Source: Chitinophaga pinensis
Lineage (GTDB): Bacteria > Bacteroidota > Bacteroidia > 2-12-FULL-35-15
DNA length: 64,000 bases
Reading direction: 5' to 3'
Assembly (NCBI GenBank): GCA_945885475.1
Contig: CAMCYR010000002.1
Location: 37,633-101,632 of the forward strand
Positions 2,262 to 51,392 of this stretch are shown here, piece after piece. The notes beneath the pieces are model-generated. The model searched no databases, was not told the origin of the DNA, and saw only the letters and a program-made list of their open reading frames with translations. The stretch's first letter is position 1. Each line of letters starts with the position of its first letter. The translations under genes and the position numbers were made by a program.

Positions 2262-4322
2262 TTACGATTTTTTTGGTTTTAATAATGTATATATTTCTTC
2301 CTGAGCGCGTATTTTAACTTTGCTGTTTGATTTACGATACGAATTGTTTTGAGTACTTCCCAATATTCTTACCTTAGTATTATCAGACCAAAGAATATTA
2401 ATTATTTTTTTTAATTGTTGCTGTATCTCTTTGTCATAAATTGGTACTGCAACTTCAGAGCGATGATCAAGATTTCTTGTCATCCAGTCGGCCGAAGATA
2501 TGAAGTATTTTTCATCACCGTTGTTGTGAAATATGAACACTCTGCTGTGTTCCAAATATTTATCTACAATACTGATTGCTTCGATGTTTTCGCTCAACCC
2601 ACTCACTCCAGCCACCAGTGAACAGATTCCGCGGACAATCAATTTAATTTTAACGCCTTCCGCACTTGCCTCATAAAGTTTTCGAATCATTTCGTCATCT
2701 ACCAAATTGTTTAATTTCAAGATGATAGAAGCCGGTTTGTTCGCTTTAGCATTCTGTATTTCTTTGTTGATAAGTTGCACCAATCGTTTACGCATGAAAA
2801 AGGGAGAAACCAACAAATGTTTATAAATCCCCCCTTTGAAATTGTCTAAATAAAAGTCAAACACTTTTTCTATTTCTTCGGTTATTATTTTATTTGACGT
2901 AAGTAATGTTTGGTCTGTATACACTTTAGATGTATCACCATTAAAATTTCCGGTTCCGATATGCGCATAGTGATTTATTTTTCCAGATTCTTTTCGCGTG
3001 ATCAGAAAAAGTTTCGAATGTACTTTTAGACCTGGAACGCCATATATTACTTTTGCGCCTTCTTCTTGCAACTTTCCCGACCAGTATATGTTTGCTTCTT
3101 CATCAAATCGCGCCTGCAACTCAATTACAGCGGTGACTTGCTTCCCGTTTTTTAGCGCATTGATCAAGGCCTTAACTATATTTGAGTTTTTGGCAACGCG
3201 ATAAAGCGTTATTCGAATGCTCTGAACTTTAGGATCAATAGATGCTTCTCTCAGAAGATCGATGATATGATCAAATGATTGATAAGGATAAGTTAATAAA
3301 ACATCTTTCTTTTTTATCACCTTAATAATAGATGATTGATCTTTTAGATCCGGATGTTTTAATGGAATATTTTTTTTATAACTAAGGTCGGGATGCCCGA
3401 TATTCGGAAAGGAAATAAAATCTTTAAAATTATGATAGCGTCCCCCGGGGATCGGATTGTCGTCTTTTCCCAGCTTAATTTTTTTCATTATAAAATCAAG
3501 CATATCCGGAGCAATCTCACTATCATATACAAGTCGTACCGGTTGTCCGGTTTTCCGCGCCTTTAATCCTTTTGATATTTTTTCAACAAAACTTTTTGAA
3601 AGGTCGGTATCAATATCTATTTCAGCATCTCTCGTTAGTTTGATGTTATAAGATTCGATATAGTCGTGGTCAAAATTCTGAAAAATATCATCCAAACAAT
3701 AACGGATAACATCGTCTAAAAGAAGAATATAATTTTTATCTTTTTCTTTTGGCAACACAACAAACCTGGAAATTGTATCTGTTGGAACTTCAATAATAGC
3801 GTATTTGTTCTTTTTCGATGAATCCTTTCGTCCAAGTTTAATGATCAAATATCCTAACCGGTCTTTCAGGTAGGGAAAGGGTGATGGGCTATCAAGCATT
3901 ATTGGAAACAATGACCCTTTCACCTTTTCTCTGAAATACTCTTTTACAAAGGTTCCCTGTGCAGGCGATAATTGCTTCTCATTGATGATGGAAATATTTT
4001 GTTTATTAAGCTCACGTATAATAACCTGATATATATGTTCAAATTTATCTTGTTGAGCAATTACCGCTTGTTTAATTTTTTCCAACAGCCGAACAGGGTT
4101 TTCCCCCATTAATTCTTCTGCTTTTTTTTGATGCTTTACAACGCGTTTAAGGGTTGCAACTCGAACTCTAAAAAACTCATCCCTGTTATTAGAGTAAATA
4201 CCTAAAAATTTTAAGCGTTCAATCAGGGGTACGGTTTTGTCCTCCGCTTCTTGCAGAACCCTGTCATTAAATGCTAACCAGCTTAATTCACGATTAATTA
4301 AAACAACATTTTTTTTTAGCAT
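2262..4322 (-). CDS. ppk: Polyphosphate kinase 1
   Basis: The protein is 686 aa. The N-terminus INRELSWLAFNDRVLQEA and the overall PPK1 architecture are recognisable, including the conserved PLD-like C-terminal domains. Confidence 0.95.
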   Translation of the reverse strand: MLKKNVVLINRELSWLAFNDRVLQEAEDKTVPLIERLKFLGIYSNNRDEFFRVRVATLKRVVKHQKKAEELMGENPVRLLEKIKQAVIAQQDKFEHIYQVIIRELNKQNISIINEKQLSPAQGTFVKEYFREKVKGSLFPIMLDSPSPFPYLKDRLGYLIIKLGRKDSSKKNKYAIIEVPTDTISRFVVLPKEKDKNYILLLDDVIRYCLDDIFQNFDHDYIESYNIKLTRDAEIDIDTDLSKSFVEKISKGLKARKTGQPVRLVYDSEIAPDMLDFIMKKIKLGKDDNPIPGGRYHNFKDFISFPNIGHPDLSYKKNIPLKHPDLKDQSSIIKVIKKKDVLLTYPYQSFDHIIDLLREASIDPKVQSIRITLYRVAKNSNIVKALINALKNGKQVTAVIELQARFDEEANIYWSGKLQEEGAKVIYGVPGLKVHSKLFLITRKESGKINHYAHIGTGNFNGDTSKVYTDQTLLTSNKIITEEIEKVFDFYLDNFKGGIYKHLLVSPFFMRKRLVQLINKEIQNAKANKPASIILKLNNLVDDEMIRKLYEASAEGVKIKLIVRGICSLVAGVSGLSENIEAISIVDKYLEHSRVFIFHNNGDEKYFISSADWMTRNLDHRSEVAVPIYDKEIQQQLKKIINILWSDNTKVRILGSTQNNSYRKSNSKVKIRAQEEIYTLLKPKKS

Positions 4323-4359
4323 ACCTCACAAAAAATATCAACACTAAAATTACGAAATA

Positions 4360-4632
4360 TTATTTTTTGCTTTTAACCTTTTTTACGGTTTTCAACTTCT
4401 TTACAGCCGTTTTAGCATTAGCCTTCTTTTTTACGGTTTTTACTGGCTTAGTCTTAATCGCTACTTCGGTTTTTTGTTTCAGTGTTTTTGAAAACTTTTT
4501 TGCAATCAATTTACACACTTCGACTGTAGTTTTTCGAATTTTAGCAGCTGCCTCTGCGTTTTGTTTTGATAGAACTTCTTCAATCGTTTTTACTAATCGG
4601 AGTTCAAGTTCTTTGCGGTGGGTCTTATTCAT
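4360..4632 (-). CDS. Histone H1-like (HC1-like) lysine-rich DNA-binding protein
   Basis: A 90-aa protein that is extremely K/A-rich, with a C-terminal KKxKxVKK repeat tail. Such proteins are typical of Bacteroidota. Confidence 0.65.
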   Translation of the reverse strand: MNKTHRKELELRLVKTIEEVLSKQNAEAAAKIRKTTVEVCKLIAKKFSKTLKQKTEVAIKTKPVKTVKKKANAKTAVKKLKTVKKVKSKK

Positions 4633-4721
4633 TGTTTTTTAGATTTAGAAATTAAAAGTGAGAAAAATAGTGTTCCATATAACCAGCAGTTTAAACCTTA
4701 ACAATTTGTTAACGGATGTAT

Positions 4722-5216
4722 TTAAGCGTGTTTTTTTGGAAAGTCGACATATGTTATGGAATTATTTTTTCTTTCAAAATATTTCCACTCTTTTTCATCT
4801 GATGTTATTCCAACTATTCCGCAAGTGGGAATTTCTTCTGAACATGCGTTCGTAAGTTCATTTGCCATGTTCGTGATTGTCGGGTTGTGGCCAAATAAAA
4901 AGACCGTTTTAAATTTGTTGTCAGTTTGGGTGATGCAGCGGAGATATTCTTTTACGGAAGTATCGTATAACTGTTGATTGATCTCTATTGTTTTTGGGTC
5001 GAGTTTAAGGGTTCTACAAAATATTAAAGCTGTTGAAAGAGCTCTAATGGCAGGACTACTTATAATTATATCTGGGATAATATTTTTGTTTTTAAAGATC
5101 AAGCTCATTTTGTGTGCATCAGCATAACCCCGCTCATTCAAAGGACGATCGATGTCAGAAATTTCAGCGAGCGAGCGATCGGATTTGGCATGACGAATAA
5201 GATAAAGTGTTTTCAT
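4722..5216 (-). CDS. sixA: Histidine phosphatase family protein (SixA-like phosphohistidine phosphatase)
   Basis: The N-terminus LYLIRHAKS carries the RHG catalytic motif. Size is ~160 aa, with a conserved GHNP motif near the C-terminus. Confidence 0.8.
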   Translation of the reverse strand: MKTLYLIRHAKSDRSLAEISDIDRPLNERGYADAHKMSLIFKNKNIIPDIIISSPAIRALSTALIFCRTLKLDPKTIEINQQLYDTSVKEYLRCITQTDNKFKTVFLFGHNPTITNMANELTNACSEEIPTCGIVGITSDEKEWKYFERKNNSITYVDFPKKHA

Positions 5217-5259
5217 TTTTATTTATTTATCTTTAAGCTGAAATTCAGATAGTAAATGT

Positions 5260-6066
5260 ATGTTATTTTTGAGGATAATTTTCCCAGTATTTCTTTTTTC
5301 TTTTTTAGGAATTGTTATTTCTAACAAAACAATAGTTCTTGAAGCGCCCTTCTTAAAAAGATTTTCCGACAGCACAAAAATATTTTCTCAAAAATTTTAT
5401 CCGAAAACAAATAAAAAAGATCAAGTTATTAAACACGTGGCTTATACGCTTTGTTACGATGAAAATTTTGAACAGGCAAAATGGGTTGCATATCTTCTCA
5501 CTTCTAAAATGTGCAGCAATAAAGAGGAGGAGCGAACGGATAACTTCAGAGAAGACCCATCTGTCATGACTGGTTCTGCTGTTCCTAATGACTATAAAAA
5601 ATCAGGTTACGATCGCGGTCATCTCTGTCCTGCAGGTGATATGGGCTGGAGTGAAGCAGCAATGAGCGAGTCTTTTTTTATGAGTAATATGAGTCCTCAG
5701 CAGCCGAAGTTTAATCGTGGTATCTGGAAAACCCTTGAAATGCAGGTGCGTGAATGGGCTAAAAAAGAAGAAGAGCTCTATGTCATAACTGCTGGCGTTT
5801 TAGAGAAAGGTTTACCATCCATCGGAGTAAAAAACAAAGTTGCTGTTCCTAAATATTACTATAAAATTATTTTGGATGTATTTGGTTCCGAAAAAAAAGC
5901 AATCGCATTTGTAATGCCGAATGAAGGAAGTAAAGAATCTATTTTCTTTTACGCTGTTTCGGTAGATTCTGTTGAACGCTTAACACAAATTAACTTTTTC
6001 CCTGCCTTGCCGGATACCCTCGAAAACAAATTAGAATCGCATTTGAACGTTGATCTCTGGAAATAG
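5260..6066 (+). CDS. Secreted DNA/RNA non-specific endonuclease (Serratia NucA-like, Endonuclease_NS)
   Basis: There is an N-terminal hydrophobic signal and the DRGHLCPAGD active-site motif with its conserved downstream N (…SNMSPQ…). Confidence 0.85.
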   Translation: MLFLRIIFPVFLFSFLGIVISNKTIVLEAPFLKRFSDSTKIFSQKFYPKTNKKDQVIKHVAYTLCYDENFEQAKWVAYLLTSKMCSNKEEERTDNFREDPSVMTGSAVPNDYKKSGYDRGHLCPAGDMGWSEAAMSESFFMSNMSPQQPKFNRGIWKTLEMQVREWAKKEEELYVITAGVLEKGLPSIGVKNKVAVPKYYYKIILDVFGSEKKAIAFVMPNEGSKESIFFYAVSVDSVERLTQINFFPALPDTLENKLESHLNVDLWK

Positions 6067-6309
6067 AAATTGGTGCTTTAAAATAAATTTTTTAAATAGA
6101 AAATCTATCTAACAAAACAGACTCTTTTTAGTGGTAATCTTTGCATTTTCTTTCATATTAAAAGCGCAGGATAATAAAGTTGAATAGACCATTAAACTAA
6201 TTGGAGTAGCTGAAATGCAAATGGTTTTTGTTTATAAGTCCTTCACAATTGAGCTATTGCTCAACGAACATAATTGTTCTAGGAAGTTAGCTGTAGTCCG
6301 ATAAAATAC

Positions 6310-6336
6310 CCCCCTCACACGATTGAGGTTTTTTTA
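6310..6336 (+). terminator. Weak hairpin plus T-run, a possible terminator
   Basis: CCTCA-cacgat-TGAGG followed by TTTTTTT. The stem is only 5 bp and the site is about 250 nt from the nearest stop codon. Confidence 0.3.
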
Positions 6337-6343
6337 CTAGAGC

Positions 6344-6613
6344 TTATTTATTTCTTCTTCTTTTTCCTTTTCCAGGAGAGTTACTAAAACCATCTCCATC
6401 AACCTTATACTCTTTCTTTTTTCTTCTATTGTATGCTGTTCCGTTGTGTTTCATTTTCGGATCTCTTTTTTGTCTGTCGAAGTGTCGCATTTGACCGCGG
6501 GGTTTTACATTCGATCCGGAGCCCTTTTCTGCACTACCTTTTCCAGCGGCCTGAGAATATCCAGCACTTGTTAATCCGAAAACAAGTAAAAACAGAAATA
6601 ATATTTTTTTCAT
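6344..6613 (-). CDS. Small secreted, highly basic hypothetical protein
   Basis: The signal peptide is MKKILFLFLLVFGLTSAGYSQA and the mature part is K/R/G-rich. The longer ORF that starts at 6667 is less likely. Confidence 0.5.
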   Translation of the reverse strand: MKKILFLFLLVFGLTSAGYSQAAGKGSAEKGSGSNVKPRGQMRHFDRQKRDPKMKHNGTAYNRRKKKEYKVDGDGFSNSPGKGKRRRNK

Positions 6614-6734
6614 TAGTGAGAGAGGTATGGGATATATGTTAGCAGCAAATATAATTATTAGTTTCAATTTATTTTCATTCGCTCGTAAAATTATGTAATT
6701 TAGTGACTAATTAACTATTTAATGTGATAATCGA

Positions 6735-43440: not shown

Positions 43441-43566
43441 CAAAAAAAGCTGATAGATACCCTTCTTTTACTTAGAATTGTGCGTATTCAATGAAGCAGC
43501 AAGTTTTTTCTAGAAGTATAAAACAACCCTAAAGAGGAAATTTCAACTATAACATACAAAAAACAA

Positions 43567-43652
43567 AAAACCTTACAACATAATAGCTGTAAGGTTTCTT
43601 TTTGCTCCCTCTGCTGGACTTGAACCAGCGACCCTCTGATTAACAGTCAGAT
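43567..43652 (-). repeat. att-like direct repeat, copy 1. It is a 48-nt copy of the 3' half of tRNA-Asn (43605-43652) plus an adjacent terminator hairpin (43571-43595).
   Basis: On the minus strand CTGACTGTTAATCAGAGGGTCGCTGGTTCAAGTCCAGCAGAGGGAGCA is identical to the anticodon-stem-to-3'-end of the intact tRNA at 51319-51392. There is no 5' half, D-arm or acceptor partner. The hairpin is CCTTACA...TGTAAGG. Confidence 0.75.
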
Positions 43653-43768
43653 AACCAAATTGGGTAAACCCAATATTGGTAGGCTCTAACAGGTATAGAG
43701 AAATATTTGTGCACATAATTTGCAAGTTTTAGCCTGATTATTATTTCGTTTACTGCAAATATAATATT

Positions 43769-44209
43769 TTACAGCATGCCTTCATCAGCAAATGAAAAAT
43801 ACCCTTCATCAGTTATAATCAAATGATCTATTAAGACAATATCCATTATTTTACCTGCTTCTTTTAGACTTTTGGTGATTTTCTGGTCTGCTTCACTAGG
43901 CTTTAAATTACCACTTGGATGGTTGTGGCAAAGAATGATTGAACTGGCATTTGATTTTAAAGCTGTCTGAAATACAACTTTAGTATCTACTATTGTTCCT
44001 GATGTCCCTCCAAGTGATATTTTACTATATCCCAACACCCTATTTGCTCGATTTAAGAGCATTAAATACATTTCTTCAATATACTGAAGCCTATCACTCC
44101 AAATTGCTCTAAACTGCGTTTCTGCATCTCTAGAAGTAACAACTTTTGGTAGTTCAGAGAGCTTATTTTTGTACTGATAATTGATTGATATTTCACATAA
44201 TGTTTCCAT
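43769..44209 (-). CDS. RadC-like JAB/MPN domain protein
   Basis: ...IILCHNHPSGNLKPSEADQKITKSLKEAG..MDIVLIDHLII carries the H.H...(S/D) JAMM motif. Confidence 0.8.
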   Translation of the reverse strand: METLCEISINYQYKNKLSELPKVVTSRDAETQFRAIWSDRLQYIEEMYLMLLNRANRVLGYSKISLGGTSGTIVDTKVVFQTALKSNASSIILCHNHPSGNLKPSEADQKITKSLKEAGKIMDIVLIDHLIITDEGYFSFADEGML

Positions 44210-44283
44210 AATAATATTTTAGGTTAGAAAATTAATAGCTATGTATTTATTATAAACTGATTTTTTAATTATTGAAATTTGAC

Positions 44284-44634
44284 CTAATTAAAGGTGGTTT
44301 GAATGCTGGTAGGTTTGGATATGATCATAAAGTAATGATGGTAGAATGCTTTGTTCTGAATAATATAAACAAGCTTGAATTCTGGACTCATTTTTACTGC
44401 AATTACAGTTATTTCTTGACCCACTACATAGCTTTCAATCTCCAAAATACAGGTGGCTTTAAATGGGCAAAAAAGCCTATATATGCCAGCTTTACAAATC
44501 ACTAATATGCTGTTGTTTGAACAGATTTTTGCTAAACTTGTTATGTTGTTTTTATCCATGATTTTTGTTTTAAGTGTTTGAGAATAAAAAAAGGAGTACC
44601 CCAATGGATACCCCCTTATCAACCACACAATCAA
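44284..44634 (-). CDS. Hypothetical small Cys-rich protein. It is low-complexity and AT-rich, so it may not be coding.
   Basis: It lies 4 nt downstream of the preceding ORF. Its composition (I/F/Y/C-rich) is unusual. An alternative start is MDKNN. Confidence 0.3.
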   Translation of the reverse strand: MIVWLIRGYPLGYSFFYSQTLKTKIMDKNNITSLAKICSNNSILVICKAGIYRLFCPFKATCILEIESYVVGQEITVIAVKMSPEFKLVYIIQNKAFYHHYFMIISKPTSIQTTFN

Positions 44635-44640
44635 CAGAAA

Positions 44641-44979
44641 CTAACTAATCGCCCCAGAATAGACAGCTTCTTCCACATTAGTACTTTCACCAATGAATTG
44701 ATAATTGTGGCTTAATGTGATTGTTTCATTTGTTCCTGGTACTTGATATGAATAATCTTCACATTCAATTTTTACTATTTTACCAGGGAACTGTGTGTTG
44801 ATTAAAGCCTTACATGAAGCTTCATTTAAAGTTGTGGTTATTGTTGCCTTGCGGGCATGAGCATAGAATTTTCCGGTATTCACTGCTCTAATTAATTCCA
44901 CATCGCCTTGAAGTTCTAGTACATGAAATACTTCTTCTTTGGCATTTTTTCTTTTACTAAATCCAATTACTGTTACCAT
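44641..44979 (-). CDS. Hypothetical protein (112 aa), the first gene of the RadC-like operon on the island
   Basis: Codon usage is good. No motif was recognised. Confidence 0.5.
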   Translation of the reverse strand: MVTVIGFSKRKNAKEEVFHVLELQGDVELIRAVNTGKFYAHARKATITTTLNEASCKALINTQFPGKIVKIECEDYSYQVPGTNETITLSHNYQFIGESTNVEEAVYSGAIS

Positions 44980-45432
44980 TGTTATAGGGTTTTTATATAA
45001 TATAAATAGGAAAGCGTTTCTTCCCTAATGGTAAGTGGGGGAGGTGTCAGGAGTAAGCTCAGGGGTTAGTATGCAAAAAAAAAAAATTAATAACCCATTG
45101 GCAAAGCCTAAATATAATAGATTAATGAGGGTTAATGAGAGGGTTAAAGGATGTGTTGCTGCAAATTAATGGGAGGGGATTAGTAATCTTGTATAAAAAA
45201 TAGAAATTTTATATCCTCAGTAGATTGGGAACTGCAAACCTACCTTTTAAACGGGAGGATGTTCTTTGAAATCAAAATTTTTAGGCTAGATATCACTATG
45301 TCTGCATTTTAGATTAAATATGCCTAGTGTAGAGAGATTTCAACCTAAATTGGCAATTAAATAAAAAGAGGAAAAACGTAAGTCTTTCCTCTTTTTAAGT
45401 AAAATTGTCTTTTAAAAAAATTTCTGCACTTG

Positions 45433-45981: not shown

Positions 45982-46797
45982 CTAAAATCTTATTCCGACA
46001 TTAATACCGAGTCTAAATAGGAGGTTGTCATAATATGGAAAAAAGTCACTAATACCGATATCTATAGCACAAAAAATGGGTTTAATAGGGTGATAAACTA
46101 ATCCTCCATAAATGACTCCAGTACCCCAAGATGATTTATCAGTATAGGTTTTATTGTAAACTAAATCTTTAAATTCAAATTCAAATGAACCATATTCAAT
46201 TCCAATTGCTCCAAAACCTCTTAATTTACCTTCTCCAGTTGGATAAAATTTTAAATGGGCTCCAACAGCGAATCCTTTTGTTACGGTAGTGACATATCTA
46301 TTATTATAACTAGGAATATAGCAAAAATATTGAAATCTAGTTGCGCTAGATAATAAATTGGAGGAAGAATACCCTAAGTACAAAGGAATCTTGATAGCCA
46401 ATTTTTGCCTTGCAAAAAAACGTTCATAAGAAATATTGAAATCTTTAAAAAGAAAGGGAACGATATTAATAGAAAATATATTTTTCCCATAAACATTTAC
46501 AAATTTAACTTTTTCCTTAATCTGTGGTTCAGAATTAGTTGGAGGTATAATTACATCATTTTTCTTTGCAATTACTTCAGTCTCACCATTTTTATAGATA
46601 ATCATTAAAACATTGCTTTTTGATATTGTATATAAAGGACCTTCAATATTAGAGAATTTTTTATACTTAATTTCTGTAGTGTTTATTTCTATTATTTTAG
46701 TCAAAACTTCAGTACCATCTTTCAAATAAATTTTATCTTGAGAGTAGATTAAAGAAGTTAATAGGAGGGAAGTTATTAATAGGAGTGCTTTTTTCAT
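45982..46797 (-). CDS. Secreted protein with an N-terminal ~70-aa conserved module and a C-terminal putative outer-membrane beta-barrel-like half (paralog A)
   Basis: It has a signal peptide. The N-terminal half is ~95% identical at DNA level to the next gene. The C-terminal half has alternating hydrophobic residues and ends ...GINVGIRF, an aromatic terminus like an OMP beta-signal. Confidence 0.65.
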   Translation of the reverse strand: MKKALLLITSLLLTSLIYSQDKIYLKDGTEVLTKIIEINTTEIKYKKFSNIEGPLYTISKSNVLMIIYKNGETEVIAKKNDVIIPPTNSEPQIKEKVKFVNVYGKNIFSINIVPFLFKDFNISYERFFARQKLAIKIPLYLGYSSSNLLSSATRFQYFCYIPSYNNRYVTTVTKGFAVGAHLKFYPTGEGKLRGFGAIGIEYGSFEFEFKDLVYNKTYTDKSSWGTGVIYGGLVYHPIKPIFCAIDIGISDFFPYYDNLLFRLGINVGIRF

Positions 46798-46827
46798 ATA
46801 TATTAATTATTAAATACAATCTTGATT

Positions 46828-47724
46828 CTAATAACGTACACCTAAACTAATACCAATTCTAGTTAATGTGTTACCAGAATTTTTAAATTTGCCGGGAAAC
46901 GGAGCCGTGGATTTACTAAAACCAATATCAAAAGAGCAAGATAAAAGCTTATTTGGTTGATAGGATAATCCTCCATAGATAATCCCAGAAATAATGGACA
47001 AATATTTATTATAAGAAATATCTGAGAAGTATTGGCAATAATAACCAGTACAGGTTTCATTAATCTGCAATTCTAATTTAGCATATTCAACTCCAATTGC
47101 TCCAAAAGCTCTTAATTTACCTTCACCAGTTGGATAATATTTTAAATGCGCTCCAATTCCCCATCCTTTTATTATTTTCTGAGTTATATATATTCTATTT
47201 TTCATATTATCCGAATAATAATCATCATTGACTGAATAGTATTGAAATCTATTATCGTTAGACAAAAAATTGGGAGAAGAATAATCTAAATAAAAAGGAA
47301 TTTTAATAGCCAATTTTTGCTTTGCAAAAAAACGTTCATAAGAAATATTGAAATCTTTAAAAAGAAAGGGAACGATATTAATAGAAAATATATTTTTCCC
47401 ATAAACATTTACAAATTTAACTTTTTCCTTAATTTGTTTTTCCTCAACTTCTGGTTCAGAATTAGTTGGAGGTATAATTACATCATTTTTCTTTGCAATT
47501 ACTTCAGTGTCACCATTTTTATATATAATCATTAAAACATTGCTTTTTGATATTGTATATAAAGGACCTTCAATATTAGAGAATTTTTTATACTTAATTT
47601 CTGTAGTGTTTATTTCTATTATTTTAGTCAAAACTTCTGTACCATCTTTAAAATAAATTTTATCTTGAGAGTAGATTAAAGAAGTTAACAGGAGGGAAGT
47701 TATTAATAGCAGTATTTTTTTCAT
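46828..47724 (-). CDS. Paralog B of the above. The N-terminal module is the same and the C-terminal half has diverged.
   Basis: N-terminal 120 aa are near-identical to paralog A (DNA 46380-46800 ≈ 47290-47727). The C-terminus ends ...GISLGVRY. Confidence 0.65.
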   Translation of the reverse strand: MKKILLLITSLLLTSLIYSQDKIYFKDGTEVLTKIIEINTTEIKYKKFSNIEGPLYTISKSNVLMIIYKNGDTEVIAKKNDVIIPPTNSEPEVEEKQIKEKVKFVNVYGKNIFSINIVPFLFKDFNISYERFFAKQKLAIKIPFYLDYSSPNFLSNDNRFQYYSVNDDYYSDNMKNRIYITQKIIKGWGIGAHLKYYPTGEGKLRAFGAIGVEYAKLELQINETCTGYYCQYFSDISYNKYLSIISGIIYGGLSYQPNKLLSCSFDIGFSKSTAPFPGKFKNSGNTLTRIGISLGVRY

Positions 47725-47729
47725 ATATA

Positions 47730-48335
47730 TTAATTTCGAACCAATAAATAATAAGTAAAAACATTAACCGCAATACCAATACCAAAACCACCCCAGACGC
47801 GCCCCCATTTCTTTTGCTTCATTTTATGTTTGTATCCACTGAGATAATCTGGATTTTTAATTAAATTTGAATCAGGGTTTGTTTGTTTTATTGCACCAGC
47901 TGTTGGTTTACACAAACCAATTATTAATCCAGTAACAATACCAGCTGGAGAAAATATAATTGTAGGCACAAAAGTGCCCCAAAATGGTTTATAGCTTGTA
48001 TATTTAATTCTAGCATCTTCTTCCCCTAATCTCATCATTTCAGCAGATGACTTTCCAATAGTATTTTCGTTTATACTGTTGTTTTCATTGGCCTTTTTTA
48101 CTTCAGCAAAAACATCTTTATCACCATTTTCATATATAATCATCACTATTTCACTTATAGAAACAACTATTGTAGGGCCATCTTGGTAGTTATATTTTTT
48201 ATATTTAATTTCAGCGGAACCCACTTCTGTTACCTTTGCATCAATATAGTCACCACTATACAAGTATATCTTATCTTGAGAGAATGAATTAAATATTGAT
48301 AGAAAAAAATAGGTGATAAATAATGTTTTTTTCAT
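47730..48335 (-). CDS. Secreted protein with a related N-terminal DKIYL...EIKYKK...IIYENG module (paralog C) and a C-terminal membrane segment
   Basis: Signal peptide MKKTLFITYFFLSIFNSFSQ is followed by the ~70-aa module shared with paralogs A and B. The tracked ORF starts 20 codons earlier, at 48395. Confidence 0.55.
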   Translation of the reverse strand: MKKTLFITYFFLSIFNSFSQDKIYLYSGDYIDAKVTEVGSAEIKYKKYNYQDGPTIVVSISEIVMIIYENGDKDVFAEVKKANENNSINENTIGKSSAEMMRLGEEDARIKYTSYKPFWGTFVPTIIFSPAGIVTGLIIGLCKPTAGAIKQTNPDSNLIKNPDYLSGYKHKMKQKKWGRVWGGFGIGIAVNVFTYYLLVRN

Positions 48336-48498
48336 AGATTGCTTTAGTGTTGAAAAATATTTTATTAATCCAGCAAAATCAGATTTTGTGGCCATGACTG
48401 AGCAGTAGTAAACACGTTAAATAATAAAATTATTAAATGTTTTTTGTTTATCAATAATATTTAATTGTAATCAGTTTTATCTTCAGTTTATGAGTCAA

Positions 48499-50493: not shown

Positions 50494-50900
50494 AGGGTTT
50501 TGGTTTTAAGTAAAATTGTTTTGTTCAGAAGATACAAGTTGCTGCATACCAATAGATATGAAACCTTAATGTTTTTTAATAAAGAAAATATTGTGGATTA
50601 TGATAGGAGAGTATATAATCAATACAAATGTAAACTATTTTGTATAAAGTGCTAATTTTAAATAACCACAGTATCTCTAGGGTTTTTTAGTTGATTGATT
50701 TTAGCTTTAAACCAATTAGCAGAGGCATTTTATTCATTACCTTGAACAAAGCAGTTTTTAAAACAGTTAGGAGAAGCAATAACTAAGCACAGATTAAAAC
50801 TGTAGCTTCTCCTAAATCATTTGCATGTAATTTGCATGTGGAGGGTCATTTTCCTACCTCAAAAGCCATTTCTGACCTTAAGGGTTTAAAAAACAAAAAA

Positions 50901-51013
50901 CCTTACAACTTAATAGCTGTAAGGTTTCTTTTGCTCCCTCTGCTGGACTTGAACCAGCGACCCTCTGATTAATCCCGCACGTGCGGGACTCTAACCAGCT
51001 GAGCTAATTTCCC
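50901..51013 (-). repeat. att-like direct repeat, copy 2. It is a terminator hairpin (50901-50925) plus a tRNA-Asn-derived pseudo-tRNA (50934-51013).
   Basis: The 3' 39 nt (50934-50972) and the D-arm (50990-51008) are identical to tRNA-Asn. The acceptor 5' strand and the anticodon stem are replaced (GGGAAAT... and CCCGCACGTGCGGG), so no cloverleaf can form. Confidence 0.7.
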
Positions 51014-51289
51014 TTCTGGTATAAAGTCTGTATTAATCAACTTTTCGATTAGTTTTTTAGACTTCTGTTTTTTGATAAAACGTTCCAATGTTACTGCCTC
51101 AGATTGTGTTCCTGCTTCAAACACTGCTTTCAATTCCGACGGCTTGTGCTTGGAAGAAAATGTTCCTTCTTCTTTTGTATTATGCTGAATCAATCTCTCT
51201 GCAGGACTTTCACTATACCCGATATATGTAATATCGGATTTCAAACTATGAAGAATGTATATGTAGAACACGGGACTAAGGTAAAACAA
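50969..51289 (-). CDS. Small GIY-YIG domain nuclease-family protein, of the type common next to tRNA genes in Bacteroidota
   Basis: FYIYILHSLKSDITYIGYSESPAERLIQHN is a GIY-YIG motif. The last ~15 codons read through the pseudo-tRNA (…LAQLVRVPHVRD). Confidence 0.65.
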   Translation of the reverse strand: MFYLSPVFYIYILHSLKSDITYIGYSESPAERLIQHNTKEEGTFSSKHKPSELKAVFEAGTQSEAVTLERFIKKQKSKKLIEKLINTDFIPEGKLAQLVRVPHVRD

Positions 51290-51318
51290 AAAAGCCTCAC
51301 ATTTCTGTAAGGCTTTTG

Positions 51319-51392
51319 CTCCCTCTGCTGGACTTGAACCAGCGACCCTCTGATTAACAGTCAGATGCTCTAACCAGCTGAGCTAAGAAGGA
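51319..51392 (-). tRNA. tRNA-Asn (anticodon GTT)
   Basis: On the minus strand the sequence is UCCUUCU-UA-GCUC-AGCUGGUUA-GAGC-A-UCUGA-CUGUUAA-UCAGA-GGGUC-GCUGG-UUCAAGU-CCAGC-AGAGGGA-G. The 7-bp acceptor stem has one G-U pair. The anticodon loop CU-GUU-AA gives GUU. The T-loop is GTTCAAGT. The 5' U is as in E. coli tRNA-Asn. A terminator hairpin lies at 51292-51315. Confidence 0.9.

Follow-up and report, generated by a model that had tools for sequence, protein, structure and literature searches.

In a 64,000-nucleotide window taken from the Chitinophaga pinensis contig CAMCYR010000002.1, three genes stand in series on the minus strand between positions 43769 and 44979: two genes for small proteins, called here ORF1 and ORF2, and a gene for a RadC-like JAB/MPN protein. 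We refer to the group as the cassette; all coordinates without a locus label are those of the window. The original prediction, made from the sequence alone, had seen three reading frames on one strand, the last of them RadC-like, all reading toward an att-like repeat. These points stand, and the repeat contains 53 nt (43600-43652) that duplicate the 3' part of a tRNA-Asn gene. The middle gene is different from the one first described. A reading of ORF2 as 116 codons, beginning with a TTG at 44634, was rejected: this start sits in a terminator-like hairpin, and homologs have about 91 amino acids, beginning at the ATG at 44559. The true start being there, the genes are separated by 81 nt (ORF1 to ORF2) and 74 nt (ORF2 to RadC), instead of the 4-75 nt of the original prediction. 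The coordinates of the cassette and of its surroundings are collected in Table 1.

Table 1. The cassette and neighbouring features of the window.
Feature	Position	Strand	Remarks
ORF1	44979..44641	minus	112 aa, ATG start
ORF2	44559..44284	minus	91 aa, ATG start
RadC-like JAB/MPN protein, short stand-alone form	44209..43769	minus	146 aa
Intrinsic-terminator-like hairpin	44590..44617	minus	12 pairs, GC-rich, with T-run; directly past the ORF1 stop
Leader hairpin	45007..45027	minus	short, GC-rich; about 28 nt upstream of the ORF1 ATG, C-run before it
33-nt motif AATCAGGCTAAAACTTGCAAATTATGTGCACAA	43707..43739	minus	about 30 nt past the RadC stop
Distal att-like repeat	43558..43652	minus	tRNA-Asn 3' part (43600-43652) and terminator (43558-43602)
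Proximal repeat	50888..50981	minus	degenerate tRNA-Asn-like sequence (50929-50981) and the same terminator
Intact tRNA-Asn(GTT)	51318..51392	minus	presumed original integration target

The RadC-like protein matches the Pfam family PF04002 over its residues 39-145, with a score of 135.8 bits (cut-off 22.1, E=9e-40). Compared with the NCBIfam equivalog NF000642 (RadC/YicR), it reaches 118.8 bits, under the cut-off of 180, and aligns with profile positions 108-211 of 212. Since it falls below the equivalog cut-off, covers the C-terminal half only and lacks the N-terminal helix-hairpin-helix (HhH) half, we assign it to the short, stand-alone form found on mobile elements. The metal motif of the family, E...HNHPSG..PS..D, is complete in each of the 14 cassette RadCs that were aligned, that of the window and 13 others, and the same 14 have the JAMM-type residues (Glu ... 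His-x-His ... Ser-x-x-Asp), as IEE ... HNHPSGNLKPSEAD. None of the PADLOC-DB models matches the window RadC.

ORF1 and ORF2 represent two protein families annotated in no library searched. A search with the single sequence of ORF1 yields 67 clusters of homologs, 38-98% identical and mostly 112 amino acids long, and a profile search yields 297; the homologs of ORF2 form 46 clusters, nearly all of 91 amino acids and starting with MDKNN or MNKNN, and an exhaustive profile search brings 377 representatives. Neither protein, nor any member of the two alignments, hits a recurrent family in Pfam, NCBIfam, PHROGs or PADLOC (E<=1), and a comparison of both profiles with the sequences of the PDB gave nothing relevant.

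In order to see in which company these genes occur, neighbourhoods were anchored on homologs of ORF1 or ORF2, the loci were scored with profiles and duplicates were removed; a scan of representative genomes contributed 6 ORF2 loci, and a scan of metagenomes 7 ORF1 loci. The collinear order ORF1, ORF2 where present, RadC is found in about 15 independent loci. Twelve have the three genes (the window, L001, L003, L004, L006, L008, L012-14, L020, L021 and L023), and three, all from Flavobacteriia, pass directly from ORF1 to RadC (Arenibacter L005, Winogradskyella L017 and Flavobacterium L018). A subset of the twelve, the Fodinibius/Aliifodinibius loci L012-14, has the order ORF1, DUF3871, ORF2, RadC. 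The original prediction had proposed a survey of neighbourhoods for conserved linkage to RadC: wherever the flanking sequence of a locus is long enough, the order is the same, except in L024 and in two loci that have ORF2 without ORF1 or RadC. The locus L024 is the only one with an ORF1 and no RadC, and its ORF1 breaks off at residue 83 or so, next to genes that are presumably GldN/GldM-like; we rejected it as a genuine ORF1 without RadC, and consider it a truncated remnant. The two ORF2-only loci read AAA_24, DUF3871, ORF2 (L015), and DUF3871, ORF2, followed by a tRNA/tmRNA-like end (L027).

The pairwise identities of the three proteins correlate across loci, with Spearman coefficients of 0.58-0.89, thus the three genes are inherited as a unit. 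The ratio dN/dS lies between 0.05 and 0.2 for the cassette genes wherever dS is unsaturated: all three are under purifying selection, and both small ORFs are real, conserved genes. The fear, expressed with the original prediction, that the small ORFs might have no homologs and poor coding potential is dispelled by their many homologs and low dN/dS, and the idea of an uncharacterised module at an island edge is strengthened by a linkage that is conserved across loci.

No relative of ORF1 or ORF2 was detected in the PLSDB plasmids, in the INPHARED phages or in the viral contigs of IMG/VR. A phage or plasmid origin of the cassette had been envisaged, and was dropped because the two proteins are absent from PLSDB and INPHARED. 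Bacteroidota plasmids do carry relatives of the RadC protein, 42-55% identical, without ORF1 or ORF2; the linkage to ORF1 and ORF2 is consequently specific to an island-borne subclade, and the tie between RadC and the small ORFs that had first been proposed is true of the island-borne genes and fails for these plasmid relatives. RadC homologs at E<=1e-10 are present in 2289 plasmid records of PLSDB; 71% of these records are predicted conjugative, and enterobacterial plasmids predominate among them.

Structure prediction, which had been recommended for both small proteins, is informative for one of them. The AlphaFold2 (AF2) model of ORF1 has a pLDDT of 88.2 and a pTM of 0.72, and its predicted topology, b1-b2-b3-helix-b4-b5, with strands at residues 2-11, 17-31, 38-49, 67-79 and 86-96 and the helix at 53-59, is the classic order of the OB (oligonucleotide/oligosaccharide-binding) fold. 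The model of ORF2 is poor (pLDDT 59.5) and matches no fold. The best structural neighbours of the ORF1 model are weak ones: OB proteins that bind single-stranded DNA (ssDNA) or RNA, with PrgE of plasmid pCF10 at the top. The named matches in BFVD, also weak, are nearly all phage single-stranded-DNA-binding proteins (SSBs). Sequence comparisons do not reach that far: ORF1 and 45 members of its family have no match in Pfam, the SSB profiles included, and an hhalign comparison of ORF1 with the OB domain of the E. coli SSB gives a probability of 0.3%, that is, unrelated. ORF1 and ORF2 are also unrelated to each other. The 45-sequence profile of ORF1 is too diverse for building search patterns. The last ten residues or so of ORF1 are disordered, and contain a conserved acidic-aromatic motif, EEAVF/Y (the window tail is ..VEEAVYSGAIS), reminiscent of the partner-binding tips of SSBs. 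Judging from the model, ORF1 has a predicted OB fold and may be SSB-like. The earlier statement that the small ORFs have no recognisable motifs is thus true of their sequences, and is superseded for ORF1 by the predicted topology.

ORF2 is a small, basic protein (pI 9.0), rich in beta structure. Its relatives adjoin genes for AAA_24, the Pfam family of the Sak4-type annealases, and for DUF3871; in locus L018, the genes AAA_24 and DUF3871 are found on the same island as the pair ORF1-RadC. One relative is fused to AAA_24: protein P0309, encoded at positions 367-1320 of L026, where an ORF1 homolog directly precedes the fusion gene. The fusion could be a genuine one, of the Rosetta-stone kind, or an artefact of assembly or deletion; it may have arisen by the loss of a DUF3871 gene, which intervenes between AAA_24 and ORF2 in L015. 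The network formed by an OB-fold protein, AAA_24 and DUF3871 points to recombination proteins and to the metabolism of single-stranded DNA. Downstream of the genes AAA_24-DUF3871-ORF2 of L015, at 4040-6643, two short, unrelated ORFs (70 and 122 amino acids) separate three longer ones that are paralogs of each other (185, 185 and 230 amino acids); by eye, we take the three paralogs as candidate TerD-type stress proteins.

Whether the cassette is an operon, as first claimed, receives a divided answer: the shared strand speaks for it, and the terminator-like hairpin between ORF1 and ORF2 speaks against it. A hairpin with a T-run is found at the same place past ORF1, with other stem sequences, in L001, L003, L004, L006, L009/L010 and L013, and the two-gene loci of Flavobacteriia have a strong hairpin past ORF1 too. 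The T-run and the start of ORF2 are no more than about 30 nt apart in the six three-gene loci that were compared. This gap being too short for a separate promoter, expression of ORF2 and RadC is most simply explained by read-through; the gap between ORF2 and RadC has no terminator-like hairpin. The leader hairpin of ORF1 also recurs at the equivalent spot, with varied stems, 25-45 nt upstream and often with a GAAA-type loop, in L001, L003, L004, L009, L012-14 and L021-23; RNAalifold, applied to a MAFFT alignment of the ORF1 leaders, returned no consensus structure. The 200 nt upstream of each of the three window genes do not contain the Bacteroidetes-type promoter motif TAnnTTTG, and a sigma-70-type scan gave no more sites than shuffled sequence.

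The carriers of the cassette are small integrative islands inserted in tRNA or tmRNA genes of Bacteroidota and Balneolales. A tyrosine integrase with the domains Arm-DNA-bind_5 and Phage_int_SAM_5 was found in L001, L004, L012-14, L018 and L023, directly downstream of a tRNA-Ser in L012 and of the tmRNA in L014. Some loci also encode an HTH_17 Xis, a D5/DUF5906 primase, AAA_24 or DUF3871, and related islands frequently have a leftward HTH_3 gene and an unannotated protein of 440-600 amino acids; the unannotated backbone proteins (593 and 444 amino acids, and small ORFs) have no match in NCBIfam or PADLOC. The cassette occupies the end of the island opposite the integrase, with RadC outermost. 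While the cassette is constant, the remaining cargo is highly variable, and most of it is recognisable anti-phage defence: an AriA/GajA-like ATPase with a trypsin-like protease, HsdM, McrBC with an MmeI-type enzyme, GmrSD, Lamassu-type domains, TIR with nSTAND, and type III restriction-modification (RM). In L001, the neighbouring cargo matches the PADLOC models of AriA/GajA and LmuA type.

The original prediction had associated the cassette with integrative and conjugative elements (ICEs) or conjugative transposons (CTns). The called genes of the 15 loci include no relaxase, no Tra or type IV secretion gene and no oriT; together with the absence of ORF1 and ORF2 from the plasmid, phage and viral collections, this leaves the ICE/CTn interpretation unsupported. 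We rejected it: a defence-carrying integrative island fits better. In L003, L010, L006, L001, L004 and L013, no convincing att direct repeat was detected. Two loci, L002 and L003, come from separate assemblies of apparently the same organism, and their sole difference is a 115-bp deletion around L003 9198-9313, which takes the stop codon of RadC, the 33-nt motif of Table 1, and half of the anticodon stem of a truncated tRNA.

The island of the window is itself much reduced. It lies between two tRNA-derived repeats: the 53-nt segment of the distal repeat is 100% identical to positions 51314-51366, within the intact tRNA-Asn, and its terminator flank is 98% identical to 50888-50932; the Rfam tRNA model matches at 43605-43664 with 29.9 bits. 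The segment of about 7.3 kb between the repeats has a GC content of 0.27-0.32, against about 0.37. By blastn, homology of the window DNA to other islands is restricted to about 43707-45090, some 1.4 kb. No ORF of the window matches any of three integrases taken from the islands, or the remaining backbone proteins (E<=0.01), and none resembles the Xis, primase, AAA_24, DUF3871, HTH_3 or large unannotated proteins of the islands. Upstream of the cassette, there are instead a 158-aa protein with a signal peptide, three paralogous signal-peptide genes, and a Laminin_G/SprB protein sorted by the type IX secretion system. With only the 1.4-kb cassette surviving, beside unrelated genes for secreted proteins, the island of the window is a non-autonomous relic. 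The three paralogous genes form a tandem array on the minus strand, at 45982-48395, and encode proteins of 271, 298 and 221 amino acids; their DNA repeats are 83-96% identical, their N-terminus is weakly like NF047433, and their C-terminal 160 or so amino acids are 34-36% identical to the 417-aa gene product that precedes ORF1 in L001.

The 33-nt motif beyond RadC is unique in the window, where 0.01 matches are expected by chance. It also follows RadC in L003, L004 and L008-10, though the abutting tRNAs differ (Asn, Arg, Met and Lys). The form AATCAGGCTAAAACTTGCAAAT..TGCACAA, found at 43707-43739 of the window and at L003 9215-9250, L004 9245-9280 and L009 8760-8795, is more strongly conserved than the adjoining coding DNA, and the blastn homology between the window and L004 stops at 43707, the edge of the motif. 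It is a candidate arm-type integrase site at the island end. The tRNA-derived sequence at the RadC end starts at the anticodon stem in the four cases out of four that were compared (L003 9200-9315, L010 11010-11090, L004 9308-9382 and window 43600-43652): the window has a 3' part in the same orientation, L004 a complete tRNA-Arg, and L003 (tRNA-Met CAT) and L010 (tRNA-Lys CTT) a 5' part that points the other way. At the other end of the window island, a 106-aa GIY-YIG ORF (51289..50969, minus) lies between the intact tRNA-Asn and its degenerate copy. This copy retains the D-arm and the T-arm, with the anticodon arm swapped for a tcccgcacgtgcggga hairpin, and the final codons of the ORF extend into the tRNA-like sequence; the region looks like a small element associated with a duplication of the tRNA gene.

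What could such a cassette do for an island? Tentatively, and with slightly less than even confidence, we propose that it is a module for ssDNA binding and nucleic-acid processing that serves the island's own DNA. The cassette would be a conserved accessory module of tRNA/tmRNA islands that shuttle defence genes, kept at the end opposite the integrase. ORF1 would be made in excess, owing to a leaky terminator downstream of it, and would coat the single-stranded or replicating DNA of the island past its excision or transfer. ORF2 and RadC, produced at a lower level by read-through, would act on the ORF1-coated DNA, RadC as a metal-dependent nucleic-acid-processing enzyme and ORF2 as a small basic adaptor, of a kind that elsewhere partners AAA_24 and DUF3871. 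An abundant ORF1 with scarce ORF2 and RadC would have the ratio expected of a coating protein and its catalytic partners. Together, the proteins would aid the establishment, recombination or maintenance of the island. This proposal agrees with what is known of the parts. RadC-type JAB domains are predicted to be nucleic-acid-processing enzymes, a prediction based on their fusion, on conjugative elements, to ArdC-N, primase and helicase domains (PMC3239186, PMC5512222); Sak4 annealases work with a cognate SSB (PMC5928155). The RadCs of plasmids that are nearest to the cassette RadC have an ArdC-like ssDNA-binding protein or ArdA as neighbour.

Several points weigh against this proposal. The activity of RadC, be it nuclease or peptidase, has been demonstrated in no system, and this applies to the whole family (PMC3239186, PMC5512222). 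The three cassette proteins are known from computation only; from its sequence, we infer that the terminator past ORF1 is leaky; and the model of ORF2, the putative adaptor, is poor. The only AAA_24::ORF2 fusion is on one contig of 1.7 kb. The sampling of loci was always anchored on ORF1 and ORF2, never on RadC. Finally, the islands showed neither a relaxase nor an oriT nor a packaging gene, which makes a single-stranded stage hypothetical.

The same proposal can be taken further, at the price of becoming unlikely: ORF1, ORF2 and the short RadC, with AAA_24 and DUF3871 as exchangeable parts, could form a hitherto overlooked multi-protein ssDNA-processing machine, the true conserved core of a new class of Bacteroidota islands that shuttle defence genes. 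If this were true, the islands would need an ssDNA machine in order to travel from cell to cell as passengers, of a helper phage or a conjugative element for example, and the RadC JAB domain would have its first defined partners and substrate.

A competing explanation, also unlikely in our judgement, is that the cassette is an anti-defence module, whose early expression on arrival in a new host would neutralise host nucleases or other immunity, with RadC attacking defence components as a protease or nuclease while ORF1 shields the DNA. The plasmid relatives of RadC lend it some appeal. Those closest to the cassette RadCs adjoin ArdA, in a CTn-like region of Bacteroides ovatus (RadC-ArdA-DUF3873), and an ArdC-like gene with MobC and relaxase in Pontibacter (RadC-ArdC-like-MobC-relaxase): these RadCs, 42-55% identical, have a gene for a DNA-binding or DNA-protecting protein as neighbour, as is presumed here; the partner in Bacteroides ovatus and in Pontibacter is ArdA or ArdC-like and comes after RadC. 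In other phyla, RadC is fused to ArdC modules (PMC3239186), and the cassette is placed at an end of the element, reading outward. However, ORF1 and ORF2 are absent from the plasmids of PLSDB, as they are from phages, and have no homology to known anti-defence proteins. The carrier islands have no leading region marked by a relaxase or oriT, and the neighbourhood ties are to AAA_24 and DUF3871 rather than to Ard genes.

Since the cassette is always found within defence-rich islands, and new defence systems often turn out to be small cassettes of uncharacterised proteins, it might itself be a defence cargo, of abortive-infection or toxin-antitoxin-like type, in which RadC is the effector and the small proteins are sensor or antitoxin. 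We consider this improbable, more so than the anti-defence module: the cassette stays constant where the recognised defence genes are exchanged, its members diverge together as a unit, it has no match in PADLOC, ORF1 can pair with RadC when ORF2 is absent, and the OB fold and the ties to AAA_24 and DUF3871 fit DNA metabolism better. Least probable of all is that ORF2, ORF1 or both assist the integrase at the att arm as architectural or directionality factors: the constant place of the cassette beside the att end opposite the integrase, the candidate 33-nt arm site and the pI of 9.0 of ORF2 invite the idea, but the islands encode a separate HTH_17 protein of Xis type, no part in site-specific recombination is known for RadC, the cassette of Fodinibius is not terminal (a type III RM system lies beyond it), and that of the window is under apparent selection where there is no integrase.

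The nearest precedents for the proposed ssDNA module share some of its parts and differ in others. Like the short RadC JAB proteins of mobile elements (PF04002; PMC3239186, PMC5512222), the cassette RadC has an intact metal motif, no HhH half, a mobile host element and putative DNA-binding partners nearby. The fusions of RadC to ArdC-N, primase and helicase mentioned above belong to polyvalent proteins carried by conjugative elements (PMC3239186, PMC5512222), whereas here RadC is a separate gene, placed after two unannotated proteins, on a small integrative island. In the DUF3085-RadC pair of broad-host-range plasmids (PMC12826799), an uncharacterised small protein stands beside RadC, and a complex of the two has been proposed; the cassette likewise offers a partner gene, but the partner family, the type of replicon and the phylum are others, and neither ORF1 nor ORF2 has a Pfam match. 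For ORF1, the comparison is with the non-canonical OB-fold proteins that conjugative elements encode, PrgE of pCF10 among them (PMC11137577, PMC12614216). The phage module of Sak4, an AAA_24 protein, and its cognate SSB (PMC5928155) resembles the islands in which AAA_24 is near relatives of ORF2 and of the OB/SSB-like ORF1; the phage module lacks RadC, the window has no AAA_24, and the annealase role of the island AAA_24 is putative.

As a whole, the islands resemble the tmRNA islands of Pseudomonas (PMC12595487), which combine a core of intY, alpA, RadC and YqaJ with variable anti-phage cargo. Both kinds insert at tmRNA or tRNA genes, and have as recurrent genes an integrase, an Xis of AlpA/HTH_17 type, RadC and recombination proteins. 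Those are larger, from less than 20 to more than 70 kb, and are moved by transduction with jumbo phages. The partners also differ: YqaJ and Gp2-like proteins in Pseudomonas, and here, in another phylum, an OB protein with ORF2, or AAA_24 with DUF3871. The likeness is one of gene content rather than of demonstrated homology of the integrase or other core genes.

The copy in the window being a decayed remnant, the value of the finding lies in the pattern at the level of the family, and in partners of RadC that can be tested. RadC-like JAB genes are among the commonest genes of plasmids, prophages and islands, and their activity and partner have never been established: the cassette provides RadC with two conserved, co-diverging families of candidate partners. 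Cultured carriers are at hand in Fodinibius roseus DSM 21986, Winogradskyella helgolandensis, Arenibacter sp. ARW7G5Y1 and Flavobacterium sp. MFBS3-15. The cassette also marks islands of Bacteroidota in which defence systems are swapped, and is thus usable as a flag for new defence genes.

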